Shown here: one piece after another, positions 5,524-12,072 of the stretch
Position numbering within the stretch: position 1 is the first letter of the stretch
Layout of the letters: each line of letters begins with the position of its first letter
Assembly: GCF_050920415.1 (NCBI RefSeq)
Contig: NZ_CP169309.1
Direction: 5' to 3' (one strand)
Source of the DNA: Escherichia coli
GTDB taxonomy: Bacteria > Pseudomonadota > Gammaproteobacteria > Enterobacterales > Enterobacteriaceae
Length of the DNA: 64,000 nucleotides
Made by a program: the position numbers and the translations under genes
The notes under the pieces: generated by a model
The model's database searches: none
What the model was told of the DNA's origin: nothing
What the model saw: the letters and a program-made list of their open reading frames with translations, nothing else

Positions 5524-5688
5524 TTAACTACCTGGCATGTCCTTTTTCACCAAAGGAAAAAGCACCACCACAATACCGACCACCAGCACTCCATCCGCCA
5601 GCACCGACATGATCCTGCTGGTGAAATCCACCATCACCACCAGAAACAGCAGGAGTGCCACAGCGGCCAGACGCAGTTTTACCGTCAC
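5524..5688 (-). CDS. Small hydrophobic membrane protein (54 aa), translationally coupled to TerB-like gene
   Basis: GTG start overlapping the TerB-like TGA stop (GTGA); GGAGAA RBS; product VTVKLRLAAVALLLFLVVMVDFTSRIMSVLADGVLVVGIVVVLFPLVKKDMPGS is almost wholly hydrophobic; below the ORF-track length cut-off. Confidence 0.4.
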   Translation of the reverse strand: MTVKLRLAAVALLLFLVVMVDFTSRIMSVLADGVLVVGIVVVLFPLVKKDMPGS

Positions 5689-6116
5689 AGGTGGTTCTCC
5701 AGTCGCAGGCCAAGAACACCAGCAATCTCTTCCAGAACCTTACGCTCTTCCGGCTCAATTTCACCATCTGCTTCAGCAATGGCCACCGCCACATCCAGCA
5801 CATCTTCCGCTTCACGCGTATCGTGTTTCACATCTTCAATTTCACGCAACGCTGCACGACGACCAATTTTAAAATTGGTGTCAAGCTGACCTGTGATCGT
5901 GGCACTGATGGCATTAATTTCTGACGTAAACGTGGACAACGCTGGCTGGTTACGTAATACCTGTTCGATCTTCGCTTTCTCTGAAGTCTCACATTCACCA
6001 TCTGCATAGGCCACTAGGTAGGCAGCATTAATAACCGCCTGTGCCAGATCGCGTTTCTCAAACTTTTTAATTTCAGTTGCTGCTCTGCGGGTTTTCTTTT
6101 TGAAAATACCAAACAT
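5685..6116 (-). CDS. TerB-like (tellurite-resistance TerB domain) protein
   Basis: 143 aa with paired acidic helices typical of TerB (LAQAVINAAYLVAYADGECETSEKAKIEQVL ... VLDVAVAIAEADGEIEPEERKVLEEIAGVLGL). Confidence 0.7.
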   Translation of the reverse strand: MFGIFKKKTRRAATEIKKFEKRDLAQAVINAAYLVAYADGECETSEKAKIEQVLRNQPALSTFTSEINAISATITGQLDTNFKIGRRAALREIEDVKHDTREAEDVLDVAVAIAEADGEIEPEERKVLEEIAGVLGLRLENHL

Positions 6117-6289: not shown

Positions 6290-6366
6290 TGGCGCGTTGT
6301 ACTGGATTCGAACCAGTGACCGATTGCTTAGAAGGCAATTGCTCTGTCCGACTGAGCTAACAACGC
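6290..6366 (-). tRNA. tRNA-Arg (anticodon UCU), phage-encoded
   Basis: Minus strand GCGTTGTTAGCTCAGTCGGACAGAGCAATTGCCTTCTAAGCAATCGGTCACTGGTTCGAATCCAGTACAACGCGCCA folds as a canonical cloverleaf with anticodon loop CTTCTAA. Confidence 0.85.
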
Positions 6367-6379
6367 ATGATGCAGATAA

Positions 6380-6460
6380 TGGACCGCCATCGAGGACTCG
6401 AACCCCGCACCAACAACCCTGTTATCGTGTCGTCTGCTCTTCCTGATGAGCTAATGGCGG
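6380..6460 (-). tRNA. Atypical tRNA-like gene (acceptor, D and T arms present; anticodon arm does not fold canonically; possibly degenerate)
   Basis: Minus strand CCGCCATTAGCTCATCAGGAAGAGCAGACGACACGATAACAGGGTTGTTGGTGCGGGGTTCGAGTCCTCGATGGCGGTCCA: acceptor pairing, GCTC/GAGC D stem, GTTCGAGTC T arm and CCA end, but 27 nt between D and T stems. Confidence 0.45.
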
Positions 6461-6467
6461 TACGTTA

Positions 6468-6542
6468 TGGTGGCCCTGCTGGATTTGAACCAGCGACCTG
6501 GCGATTATGAGTCGCTCACTCTCACCACTGAGCTAAAGGGCC
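6468..6542 (-). tRNA. tRNA with CAU anticodon (resembles E. coli tRNA-Ile2, lysidine type; could be Met type)
   Basis: Minus strand GGCCCTTTAGCTCAGTGGTGAGAGTGAGCGACTCATAATCGCCAGGTCGCTGGTTCAAATCCAGCAGGGCCACCA; anticodon loop CTCATAA; acceptor stem one pair short of canonical. Confidence 0.8.
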
Positions 6543-6582
6543 GGGCGCAGGATAATAACGGTACGTAACTAATTCTGCAATA

Positions 6583-7641
6583 TCATCCGTTCTGACTGAC
6601 TAAATCCTGAACTTCCTTGACCGTCTGCTCAAAACGCTCAGTCTCCAGCTCAACGCCAATTGCACGACGTCCCAGCGCCATCGATGCTTTGACCGTCGAA
6701 CCCGACCCCATGAAAAAATCTGCAACCAGATCTCCCGGACGACTGCTTGCGCTGATTATCTGCTGCAACATTTCTGCCGGTTTTTCGCACGGATGTTTCC
6801 CGGGATAGTACTGCACCGGTTTATGCATCCACACATCGGTGTACGGCACCTGCACAGTCACACCGAAATACCGCCGCAAATTTTTATATTCTCTCAGCAG
6901 TTCCGTATACTGCCGGTTCAGTTCACTGTATGTGCTGACCAGCTGGTGGTGTGGCTGCTCCAGTTCACCGCGCTGATGTTTTTCTGCTGCAACACGCGCA
7001 AACAACGCCTGCAATTTGTTGTAATCAGCTTCGTTCGGTAACTGCCACTGACTGGTACCAAACCAGTGCGAAGCCATGTTTTTCTTTCCGGTGGCTTCCG
7101 CTATCTGTTTTGACGTTATTCCCAGTTCGGCACGAGCATCCCTGAAATACGATATCAGCGGTGCCATTATGTGCTGTTTGAGTTCCCTTTCTTTTGCCGC
7201 ATAGCCGTCACTTTTGCCGCGATATGGCCCCTGGTAATGTTCAGCAAACAGAACGCGCTCTGTGGCAGGAAAATATGCGCGCAGACTTTCTTTATTACAC
7301 CCATTCCAACGTCCGGACGGCTTCGCCCAGATGATATGGTTAAGCACGTTGAAACGTTCACGCATCATGATCTCAATATCAGATGCCAGGCGATGCCCAC
7401 AGAACAGGTAAAGGCTTCCGGCAGGTTTCAACACCCGCCAGAACTGGGCCAGACAGTGGTCCAGCCACTTAAGATAATCTTCGTCCCCTTTCCACTGATT
7501 GTCCCAACCGTTGGGTTTCACCTTGAAGTAAGGCGGATCGGTAACAATCAGGTCAATGGAATCATCAGGCAGGGACTGAATAAAATGCAGGCAATCAGCG
7601 TTGATTAAATCAACACTGTTTATTTTTACAGTATTTTTCAT
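6583..7641 (-). CDS. DNA methyltransferase (N6-adenine or N4-cytosine, DPPY motif), no adjacent restriction enzyme
   Basis: 352 aa with IVTDPPYF catalytic motif and C-terminal AdoMet motif DLVADFFMGSGST. Confidence 0.85.
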   Translation of the reverse strand: MKNTVKINSVDLINADCLHFIQSLPDDSIDLIVTDPPYFKVKPNGWDNQWKGDEDYLKWLDHCLAQFWRVLKPAGSLYLFCGHRLASDIEIMMRERFNVLNHIIWAKPSGRWNGCNKESLRAYFPATERVLFAEHYQGPYRGKSDGYAAKERELKQHIMAPLISYFRDARAELGITSKQIAEATGKKNMASHWFGTSQWQLPNEADYNKLQALFARVAAEKHQRGELEQPHHQLVSTYSELNRQYTELLREYKNLRRYFGVTVQVPYTDVWMHKPVQYYPGKHPCEKPAEMLQQIISASSRPGDLVADFFMGSGSTVKASMALGRRAIGVELETERFEQTVKEVQDLVSQNG

Positions 7642-7791
7642 GGATCAGTAAGCGTAACTCTGGTAGGCTCACTCTGCTTTTGCGCTAAAGCAGTGGGCCG
7701 TGGTTCGCTTGTGACCAGTAAGCATGAGCGAATGGCTGGCAGGTGCTACCAACACCCACCAGCCGCCCATTTTCACAGCAGGAAACCGCCA

Positions 7792-7998
7792 TTACTGGCA
7801 GCGTCTGAATTTATTCCCGTACCCGCCGTTATCCTTCGCCAGACCCGCCAGAACTAACTGAGTCAGTATTAACTGGCACCGGACTTCGCTTACTCCGGTA
7901 GTTCTCGTCATCATGCGTGGCGTTACCCACTTGTCAGCAGGTAAGAAATGAAGGACTGCGGCGGCGGTTTCTGTCATATCTTGCTGTTTTAGCATGTT
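7792..7998 (-). CDS. Hypothetical small protein
   Basis: ORF from ATG (MLKQQDMTETAAAVLHF...) with AAGGGA RBS; function unknown. Confidence 0.4.
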   Translation of the reverse strand, partial: NMLKQQDMTETAAAVLHFLPADKWVTPRMMTRTTGVSEVRCQLILTQLVLAGLAKDNGGYGNKFRRCQ

Positions 7999-8264
7999 TT
8001 TTCCCTTCTGGTTAACATGACATACCAATAACTCTTGTCTAAAAAGCCAGCAAGATAAAAAGTCAGTATTCACGACCACCAGCGTGTTTACTGTACTGCA
8101 CCAAGTTTACAGGTACAAAAAAACCGCTCAGCGGCGGGTTTAAGTTGTGTGGCGAAGTAACCACTCTTAACAGCATATTTGATTTTTTACGATTGTAAAC
8201 GGTTGATTATTCATCTCCAATAAAAATAATTGTGTAGGTATGCCCTTAACAATGGATAAGAAAC

Positions 8265-8711
8265 ATGAATAAAATGACTGTATTATTACTTAGCGCAACT
8301 ATCATTTCAGGTTGTACTTCTTCCGTACCATTGATAAAGAAAACTCAATCAGGAAAACCTGAGGGGGTTTATCAAAATACGACAAAAGATAAAGTCAAAG
8401 ATGCCCTTGTGAATTACTGCAATAGTAGAGGGTTGATAATTTACAACGCGGATAACAGCAGTGTTATATGTGGTAAAGAACTGGAAGGCGGGTCTGCTGT
8501 TTTTGGACAAATGTTAATCGGCAATGCCTATTCAACAACCCCGGTATCAAAAGTCAGATTTACTATCGCTCAAGTTAATAACGATACAAAAGTGTGGGCC
8601 GATATGTGGATGGAAACTCAAATGGCAATGGGGCAAGTACAACAAATGGCTATAACAGACAACGCAAGCAAAAACACTATCCAACAACGTCTTGATGAAT
8701 TAAAACCTTAA
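8265..8711 (+). CDS. Lipoprotein of unknown function (moron antisense to late transcription)
   Basis: 148 aa; signal peptide MNKMTVLLLSATIISGC with lipobox Cys; AT-rich codon usage unlike neighbours. Confidence 0.7.
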   Translation: MNKMTVLLLSATIISGCTSSVPLIKKTQSGKPEGVYQNTTKDKVKDALVNYCNSRGLIIYNADNSSVICGKELEGGSAVFGQMLIGNAYSTTPVSKVRFTIAQVNNDTKVWADMWMETQMAMGQVQQMAITDNASKNTIQQRLDELKP

Positions 8712-8731
8712 GTAAATTAATTAAATAAAAT

Positions 8732-8754
8732 GGGGAGAAATAAATCGACTCCCC
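8732..8754. terminator. Hairpin terminator between Q and lipoprotein gene (candidate tR'-like for minus strand)
   Basis: GGGGAG-11 nt-CTCCCC; on the minus strand it is followed by ATTTTATTT. Confidence 0.5.
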
Positions 8755-8796
8755 ACACATTAAACTGATTCAATTACCCCCTCAATAAGAGATCTT

Positions 8797-9162
8797 CTAA
8801 CGATCCATCTCTAGCTCAATTTCTAACATCATTAACATGCCATCAACTACACCTTCAGCCTTTTGCAATAAACGCCCAACCCAGCAATCAGAACGCCCAT
8901 GTTTACGGGCAAGCGCCATAAACGTCATACCACCTACATAATAATCCACTAATAAATCGTGCAAATCGCTGTTGTTCTTTTTCAGGCGAGCCATGCACCC
9001 ACAAATGATCATCGCGTCATCGTCACAACATTGCGGGCGGGATTTTACTTTTGAAGGGATTAGTCCTTTAAATCCTGCAGCAATAGACGACCAGGTGACA
9101 TCCTCGTGATTATTTGCCACCCATGCCCCCCAACGTTCAAGAACCATTTGAATATCACGCAT
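8797..9162 (-). CDS. Late antitermination protein Q (QuuD-like)
   Basis: [14 protein letters not shown]...[35 protein letters not shown]...ELEMDR; recognised as DLP12 QuuD-type Q with Cys cluster. Confidence 0.85.
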
Positions 9163-9179
9163 CAACTTTCTCCACAAAA

Positions 9180-10169
9180 TCAGGCCAGAACGCCAATTGC
9201 CAGCGCACGATCGATAAAACGAAATATCAGCTCCAGCTGGGAGCCATACTTCTCTTCAAATGCCACGGTATCCGCATGCAGCTCGTCGTGATGCTTTCTG
9301 CACAAAGGCAACACAAAAAGGTCATGCGCTTTTGTTCCCATTCCACCCTGACCGTGACCTATCAGGTGGTGGGGATCATCAGCAGGCTTTCCACAACATG
9401 CACACGGCTGTGTCTTAACCCAGCGCGTGTACTTTTCATTAACCCAGCGGCGACGTTTGGGGCGTAACATAAAAGACTCCGGCGACTCCGGATCCACTTT
9501 CAGCGCCAGCACCTTTTTCGCTTTATCCTGGATGATGCTGGTGGCAGGAACCGAAGGCACAAGGTCACACTCCCGGGTGACAGACGGCACAACAGGCGTC
9601 GGTAATCTCAGTGCCTTACGGGCTGCACTTTCCGGTAAGGCATCCGCCAGGTCATTACGAGCCAGCCACCAGCACAGTTCCGGCATTGTCACAACGTGAC
9701 TATCATCAAAACCGAGATCCCGACGCACGACAGATAACACCCACCGGGCACAGTTATCCGTTGCCATTGATTCCAGCCGTTCCGTGAACTGATCGCGCAG
9801 CTGGTTATCGCAGTGCCAGCACAGACGGATTGCGCCCGGAGCGTGTCGCATTGTGGTCATATTCTCGCTGTGCCAGTCGGAATGAGGCCACTGGCAGCCT
9901 TTTTCACGAAGTAACCAGCTTTCAAGACATTCCACGCCACCAGCACGACGGATTACCGCCTCATTGCGGAACATAGCCCGAACGGCAGGATCATCCGCCA
10001 GCGGTTGTGATGCCGCCGGAACGGCACCACTGGCAAAAGATGAATAACGTTCCGGCTCAGGCTCCAGCAGGACACGCCCCTGCATAAACAGGGGCATCAG
10101 CTCTGAACCGGGTCTGAACAATACGATCCCCATACGTGGGGCAATTTCAGGGGTCAGTAGTGCTCTCAA
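9180..10169 (-). CDS. DUF968 family protein (YdfU-like)
   Basis: 329 aa; C-terminal Cys/His-rich region [43 protein letters not shown] typical of lambdoid nin-region YdfU-like proteins. Confidence 0.75.
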
Positions 10170-11676: not shown

Positions 11677-12072
11677 TTACCGAGTTGCTAATTTGCAACT
11701 CGCTTTTTCGTACTTACTGATAGTGATCTCGACCTTACCTTCCGGGATAACCGGTCCCCACTCCACCAGCATTCTTTTCACCTGACTGTCGTCTTCCCAC
11801 ACCCCCGCGTGGGTCAGGGCGTCAAACAGCGCCTTGTTATAGTTGTCCAGATCGCGGATCCGGTTATCCGGAGGAAACAACACGATCTCCACTGAAGCAG
11901 GTGCCGACGTTGGTTTCGGCAGACGACGTAACTGCTCAACTATTGCTGCGCACGCCGCGCTCTGGAATTTTCGCCCCGCCGCGCTTATCAGGCTCTTACC
12001 AGCAAACGCCCCTTTGTTGGGGTGTCGCCAGTACGTGTTCACGCTGGGCGGGAAAGGCAGTATTAGCTTCAT
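11677..12072 (-). CDS. rusA: Holliday junction resolvase RusA
   Basis: 131 aa with RusA signature DxDN (RIRDLDNYNKALFDALTHAGVWEDDSQV). Confidence 0.9.
   Translation of the reverse strand: MKLILPFPPSVNTYWRHPNKGAFAGKSLISAAGRKFQSAACAAIVEQLRRLPKPTSAPASVEIVLFPPDNRIRDLDNYNKALFDALTHAGVWEDDSQVKRMLVEWGPVIPEGKVEITISKYEKASCKLATR

Follow-up and report, generated by a model that had tools for sequence, protein, structure and literature searches.

A prophage cargo gene beside Q encodes a predicted outer-membrane lipoprotein of a mobile, mostly phage-borne family with a possible role in phage exclusion

Here, we describe a lipoprotein gene carried by a lambda-like (lambdoid) prophage of Escherichia coli. 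The gene lies at positions 8265–8711 of a 64,000-nucleotide stretch of contig NZ_CP169309.1 (RefSeq assembly GCF_050920415.1; "the window" hereafter), in which the prophage is read on the minus strand. We found that the gene is real, self-contained prophage cargo, and that its family behaves as a mobile moron, not as a housekeeping lipoprotein; by sequence comparison, the product falls outside the Llp, Cor, Bor and spanin families. Superinfection exclusion is the most plausible role for this lipoprotein, and we put at roughly 40% the probability that it is an independently expressed moron product that excludes other phages at the level of the envelope. The features of the locus are as follows.

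8265–8711, plus strand: lipoprotein gene, an ATG-initiated open reading frame (ORF) of 148 aa plus stop; PHROG 3152
8265–8315, plus strand: signal peptide with lipobox I14-S15-G16-C17, read from the sequence
8203–8230, plus strand: candidate sigma-70 promoter of the lipoprotein gene, TTGATT-16 nt-AATAAT (consensus scan, 9/12)
8172–8199, minus strand: candidate late promoter, TTTACA-16 nt-TATGCT (consensus scan, 9/12)
8116–8135, minus strand: intrinsic terminator, GCCGCTGAGCGGT plus T7 (terminator scan), likely of the tR' type
8732–8754, no strand assigned: hairpin GGGGAG-11 nt-CTCCCC, between the lipoprotein stop and the Q stop
8797–9177, minus strand: antiterminator Q gene (PF06530, E 2e-51), right boundary of the insertion slot

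A first-pass annotation of the window had described a 148-aa lipoprotein with a clear lipobox, in a low-GC segment, inserted antisense just downstream of Q and separated from it by a hairpin; all of this was borne out. The ORF product is identical to WP_001038608.1, annotated as "hypothetical protein", and the gene has a 100% match in E. coli MFDS1022581, where the whole window is 100% identical and the element adjoins prfC. Its N-terminus, MNKMTVLLLSATIISGC, combines a basic n-region, a hydrophobic core and the lipobox I-S-G-C, so that MNKMTVLLLSATI-ISGC conforms to the bacterial lipoprotein pattern [LVI][ASTVI][GAS]C. The codon for Cys17 occupies 8313–8315, and alignments of 36 homologues, down to 29% identity, showed this residue to be invariant. 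In E. coli, the residue at +2 governs sorting of lipoproteins by the Lol system (the "+2 rule"); the Thr found here at +2, with no Asp, implies that the mature protein would be sorted to the outer membrane. The GC content of the gene is 0.378 versus 0.499 in the flanks (5 kb each side), the gene is antisense to every adjacent phage gene, and 85 bp, with the hairpin at 8732–8754, separate its stop codon from that of Q.

To place the protein in a family, we scanned profile databases and found a full-length match to PHROG 3152, whose function is unannotated (E 1.3e-104; residues 1–148 against profile positions 1–148 of 148). Pfam returned nothing at E ≤ 0.1 except sub-threshold noise (SapB_1, SUR7), NCBIfam returned nothing significant, and a scan of PADLOC-DB v2 found no defence family at E ≤ 1. 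A word-indexed search recovered only 31 relatives, all from Enterobacterales; an exhaustive profile search recovered 823 related clusters (50% identity) at E ≤ 1e-3 and 408 at E ≤ 1e-10. The family is therefore large, and it is mostly phage-borne, unannotated and absent from defence catalogues. Literature searches on the accession, on lipoprotein morons in tail modules and on ECOR prophages found no paper on this lipoprotein. Two names met on the way were set aside: the UniRef name "type IV secretion system putative lipoprotein VirB7" of a Xenorhabdus homologue is automatic and lipobox-based, and the "lipoprotein" defence system of PMC9519451 could not be identified from the accessible part of that source and, without a PADLOC match, is not assumed to be the same as the present protein. 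Some remote members (P0086, P0101, P0102, P0128, P0173 and P0092) are fused C-terminally to PDZ, SHOCT or TPR/YfiO(BamD)-like domains; one of them, P0173, is on a phage-like contig and adjoins a small terminase and a DUF2939 protein.

Among the 36 aligned sequences, Cys52, Cys69, G30 and Q140 are invariant along with the lipobox Cys, and the motifs T-x-S-G-x-x-E, G-N-x-Y-S-T and E-T-Q-M-x-x-G-Q come close to invariance. The Cys52/Cys69 pair would fit a periplasmic disulfide. A small lipoprotein with such a cysteine pair could also be a periplasmic immunity or inhibitor protein directed against an envelope-acting toxin or enzyme, such as an effector of the type VI secretion system (T6SS), a bacteriocin or a lysozyme, and one relative (L012) does lie ~5 kb from a VasI-domain gene. 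However, that context is single and ambiguous, none of the phage loci examined has a cognate toxin gene next to the family member, and MliC, PliC, Ivy and Tai-type inhibitors are absent among the top fold matches; we regard an immunity function as very improbable.

We then followed the gene across genomes. It is present in 184 of 5426 complete E. coli genomes, and all 50 near-identical E. coli copies in IMG/VR (50/50) are arranged as methylase, small ORF, lipoprotein gene (plus strand) and Q (minus strand). The Q allele of the window occurs only together with the lipoprotein gene (184 genomes each); with QuuD-type and other Q alleles, homology ends at the Q stop codon. On one viral contig, a 420-aa ORF lacking a Pfam or PADLOC match (L029, 4258–5520) splits the otherwise invariant lipoprotein-Q pair. 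By tblastn against 50,697 GenBank phage records, the only cultured phages with the gene are PhiR40_1 and PhiR55_1, both plaque-forming, in which it is annotated "hypothetical".

Diverged copies (48–70% identity) are found in sense orientation within lambda-type tail-tip modules, inserted after the tape-measure gene (TMP|M) or at the M|L and K|I junctions, with carriers in Citrobacter, Jejubacter, Photorhabdus, Proteus and Haemophilus. Pasteurellaceae-like phages have the gene after the tape-measure gene, or in sense orientation between Q and the holin gene, and Phytobacter copies lie in the nin region. A scan of 100,044 species-representative genomes with strict patterns gave 18 loci in Gamma-, Beta- and Alphaproteobacteria, seven of them in tail modules. 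Among the others, a Halomonas copy sits in the early region of a Mu-like prophage, and a Sphingosinicella copy adjoins urocanase and is possibly chromosomal. In Stenotrophomonas pavanii (L188, 4854–6052), a CI-like repressor gene (HTH_3 plus Peptidase_S24) precedes the copy by 72 bp on the same strand, an arrangement that suggests co-transcription with the repressor and expression in the lysogen. Most relatives in other genera show a GC dip of −0.06 to −0.16 against their flanks, and in one (L076) a promoter-like site and a strong terminator bracket the gene. The first-pass annotation had held that homology to a housekeeping lipoprotein family would refute its exclusion reading; instead, the relatives are patchy and mostly phage-borne. 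We conclude that the family behaves as a mobile moron because it occupies varied phage slots, shows the GC dip and, in L076, is bracketed by its own signals. An additional small gene was seen in one of these loci (L011, 4917–5219), which encodes a 100-aa TonB C-terminal domain protein (PF03544, E 4e-12) in a cargo island between the J and tailspike genes, ~1.8 kb from the lipoprotein homologue; such a free domain could interfere with TonB-dependent receptors.

The sense orientation of most diverged homologues in late operons, whether in tail-tip modules or as the first gene after Q and before the holin gene, would also suit a role in the lytic cycle. The lipoprotein might then keep progeny off receptor-bearing debris, which has been suggested as a second role of T5 Llp, or it might influence how the outer membrane is disrupted or when lysis occurs. 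However, in E. coli the gene runs against all lytic transcription, the Stenotrophomonas copy follows a CI-like repressor gene, and the prophage already has a lysis-gene region of its own, including a "lysis protein" gene, ~5 kb from the lipoprotein gene. Nor is the protein recognizable as an o-spanin: Rz1 lipoproteins are short, rich in proline and encoded within or beside Rz in the lysis cassette, and the weak PHROG "Rz-like spanin" matches (E 0.02–0.035) cover residues 1–45 only and are confined to the signal peptide region. A lytic-cycle role thus appears to us distinctly unlikely.

Next, we compared the insertion slot between Q and the conserved block around the candidate late promoter. 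In other E. coli prophages and phages, this Q-proximal slot is filled by unrelated genes, as listed here.

mEp460: one 308-aa antisense gene
569R4: antisense gene pair
O25b:H4 prophage: antisense gene pair
O25b:H4 slot gene of 287 aa: candidate system PDC-S42 (E 1e-32)
CFS3313 prophage: antisense gene pair
phiP27: L22, in sense orientation, a PD-Lambda-1 homologue (E 2e-89)
another prophage, directly downstream of a related Q: a lipocalin-family lipoprotein
DLP12 of K-12: nmpC porin plus IS5
slot coordinates: L004 1595–2824; L189 1971–3510; L190 1965–3377; L097 784–1308; L098

The slot appears to be a hotspot for defence and envelope cargo in E. coli lambdoid prophages, and the present locus documents this hotspot between the Q gene and the conserved promoter-terminator block. 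At this position the lipoprotein gene has the marks of a moron, that is, an extra gene absent from related phages and of deviant GC. Members of the family thus sit in slots that elsewhere hold validated defence genes.

The same slot bears on a different explanation, in which the product is a lysogenic-conversion factor that aids the host independently of phages, through envelope homeostasis, stress or serum resistance, adhesion, or ligand or lipid binding, in the manner of Bor, Lom, Blc or Francisella Flpp3. The product is a predicted outer-membrane lipoprotein on a moron, and a Blc-like lipocalin and, in DLP12, the nmpC porin occupy exactly this slot in other prophages; like Bor of lambda, these are outer-membrane proteins (nmpC/lc porin, Blc-like lipocalin) encoded by AT-rich morons near the Q/lysis region, often in antisense. 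The present protein differs from them in predicted fold and has no Lambda_Bor (PF06291), porin or lipocalin Pfam match, nor an Ail/Lom one.

We also examined the predicted structure. AlphaFold2, run with the family alignment, gave a model of pLDDT 85.3 and pTM 0.75 for a beta-alpha-beta-beta-alpha-beta-beta-beta-alpha domain, and the modelled fold appears to be of the helix-grip type, resembling BamC, Flpp3 and KA1. Sequence identity between the model and BamC/Flpp3/TBP-like structures is 6–12%, with Foldseek E no better than 6e-3; Foldseek against viral predicted structures (BFVD) returned nothing at E ≤ 1e-3, and sequence and profile searches of PDB returned chance matches only (E ≥ 0.3). 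The resemblance to the BamC helix-grip, Flpp3 (DUF3568), DUF4468/TBP-like and KA1 domains, none of which has a Pfam match here, is one of fold and is not indicative of function. That the closest folds include the virulence lipoprotein Flpp3 and BamC domains could nonetheless be taken to favour a host-fitness factor, as could the fact that helix-grip folds often bind hydrophobic ligands. Against such a factor, the family occurs in phages of free-living or insect-associated hosts (Halomonas, Sphingosinicella, Photorhabdus), which makes mammal-specific virulence unlikely, and the linkage to tail-tip genes together with the defence cargo in the slot points to phage-phage conflict. We consider a purely host-directed role unlikely.

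A candidate sigma-70 promoter ~35 bp upstream of the ATG (8203–8230) would drive the lipoprotein gene, and it stands back-to-back with the candidate late promoter. Q is the last gene of the early-right operon, and the lipoprotein gene is convergent with it. The hairpin between them folds at −21.4 kcal/mol (z = −2.0; 85-nt context, minus strand) and is likely a terminator for transcription in the Q direction, not for the lipoprotein gene, because the T-rich tract beside it (ATTTTATTT) is present on the minus strand only and the plus strand has no T-run.

On the other side of the gene, the candidate late promoter is followed, after ~30–50 nt, by the intrinsic terminator. The −10-to-terminator block (8100–8200) is kept in ~950 E. 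coli genomes and is also conserved in phages mEp460, 569R4, cdtI and phiP27, with compensatory changes in the terminator stem of phiP27; in phages carrying other Q alleles, the −10 is retained but the −35 region differs. A constitutive promoter terminated immediately downstream is a known design of Q-dependent late promoters (PMC7547250), and because the block matches this design we read it, with somewhat better than even confidence, as a PR'-tR' unit. If so, Q and PR' flank the lipoprotein gene. The first-pass annotation had the gene converging with the late operon. It does converge with Q, but the candidate late promoter is on its other side, so that gene and late operon probably diverge. 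A second possible late promoter right after Q (TTGAGG-17 nt-TAATGT, found by eye, 7/12) was rejected, being weaker than the site at 8199–8172 and bound to start inside the hairpin. The short terminated transcript of the block might be an StxS-like small RNA. An Rfam scan of 7600–9300 gave only a sub-threshold STnc130 match (26 bits against a gathering score of 55).

Llp of T5 and Cor of phi80, N15 and T1 are exclusion lipoproteins that inactivate FhuA. Like the present gene, theirs are cargo near tail or receptor-binding genes and encode small phage lipoproteins with a classical lipobox; moreover, T5 llp points away from a phage promoter next to it, much as the present gene does from the candidate late promoter. 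Kinship to Llp or Cor had been proposed for checking by homology and structure, and it did not hold up. By hhalign, the family alignment matched T5 Llp over residues 1–23 only, which is the signal peptide, and N15 Cor over residues 1–19 only. The PHROG scan gave no Llp match, and no exclusion family matched in the PHROG, Pfam or PADLOC scans. The mature domain is 131 aa in the present protein versus ~60 in Llp and Cor, and the predicted fold, BamC/Flpp3/KA1-like, differs.

We also asked whether the lipoprotein tracks a particular receptor. N15-like tail modules of the order J, g22, g23, cor and fibre encode a Cor homologue (52–66% identity to N15 Cor) together with the lipoprotein between K and I (loci L006/L066, L008–L010 and L081–L086). 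The J C-terminal domains of carriers are of different types. Many are N15-like, whereas J of the window prophage is lambda-J-like, with a receptor-binding domain that long-tailed Stx1a phages share in identical form. Carriage of the lipoprotein was not linked to one J receptor-binding type, nor to FhuA-type domains. That many carriers encode Cor, and that carriage does not follow one J type, makes simple masking of the phage's own receptor less likely; the lipoprotein does not stand in for Cor, and a receptor-masking role is not clearly indicated.

A closer parallel may lie with moron products that exclude phages after adsorption, such as Ltp of the Streptococcus thermophilus phage TP-J34 and gp15 of HK97 (PMC3952083, PMC3594210). 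Ltp is a lipoprotein, and the HK97 gp15 gene is inside the tail gene cluster, just as the present family recurs beside the TMP, M, L, K and I genes. Both Ltp and gp15 block DNA entry and act with the tape-measure protein. We detected no homology of either to the present family; Ltp comes from a phage of a Gram-positive bacterium, and HK97 gp15 resides in the inner membrane.

Overall, we favour exclusion at the envelope for five reasons: defence cargo shares the E. coli slot (PD-Lambda-1, PDC-S42), one copy stands behind a CI-like repressor gene, the E. coli gene is antisense, the family is linked repeatedly to tail-tip genes, and its distribution is mostly phage-borne and includes environmental hosts. 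With Halomonas, Sphingosinicella and Stenotrophomonas among these hosts, a role centred on phages is favoured over one in animal virulence. Tail and Q-S slots also hold morons with other functions, such as lom, bor and sodC, and position alone is therefore no proof. Under an exclusion role, a lambda-like prophage would have independently acquired the AT-rich cassette, and the lipoprotein, transcribed from its own promoter, would probably be made in the lysogen. Once exported by Sec, lipidated at Cys17 and transported by Lol, the protein would place a domain of ~130 residues at the outer membrane, where it would interfere with infection by other phages. Its partner would be conserved, either part of the host envelope or, on the side of the infecting phage, its tail tip or tape-measure protein, and not one particular receptor; such a partner is suggested because the polar motifs are strongly conserved and carriers differ in their receptor-binding proteins. 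The mechanism would be closer to the post-adsorption block of Ltp or HK97 gp15 than to the action of Llp or Cor.

Taken further, PHROG 3152 and its ~800 remote clusters could form a widespread class of outer-membrane lipoproteins with a BamC-like helix-grip fold that exclude phages after adsorption, through an envelope component or through the tail tip or tape-measure protein in the periplasm, a Gram-negative counterpart of Ltp. We offer this extension as speculative, and its odds as rather low; if true, it would explain the insertions beside the TMP, M, L, K and I genes, the coexistence with Cor, and the presence in lambda-like and Mu-like prophages across Proteobacteria. The element itself is of a familiar kind, a prophage moron for an envelope lipoprotein, and such a gene would not surprise a specialist, but it is non-homologous to the known ones. 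What stands out is the breadth of the family, its tail-tip linkage, its coexistence with Cor and its lack of an entry in defence catalogues. Prophage cargo that alters the cell surface shapes which hosts a phage can infect, how phage therapy turns out and how lysogens compete, and this small gene could point to a new mechanism of exclusion at the envelope or, equally, another host-fitness lipoprotein.

The remaining prophage genes near the locus are these.

11677–12072, minus strand: RusA
minus strand, among the prophage genes of the window: KilA-N protein
9180–10169, minus strand: DUF968
from 7792, minus strand: small ORF
6583–7641, minus strand: DNA methylase
6290–6543, minus strand: tRNA genes, downstream of the methylase
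5685–6116, minus strand: TerB-domain protein (PF05099, E 2e-16; weak PADLOC PDC-S48 match, E 0.002)
5524–5688: DUF3927 protein, placed with the TerB protein between the tRNA genes and the holin gene

In prophage order, the lysis genes come after the TerB-domain gene. In NZ_CP169399.1, which matches the window, the annotation marks frameshifts in the prophage genes for the portal, tail assembly T and N6-methyltransferase and in a lysis gene, and the window copy of the prophage may therefore be defective; its relatives PhiR40_1 and PhiR55_1 are plaque-forming. The tRNA cluster holds tRNA-Arg (tct) and a tRNA with a cat anticodon (Ile in RefSeq), with a "tRNA-OTHER" between them, as in Stx-type phages. 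Finally, the TerB-domain and DUF3927 genes resemble a further cargo pair in the late region.
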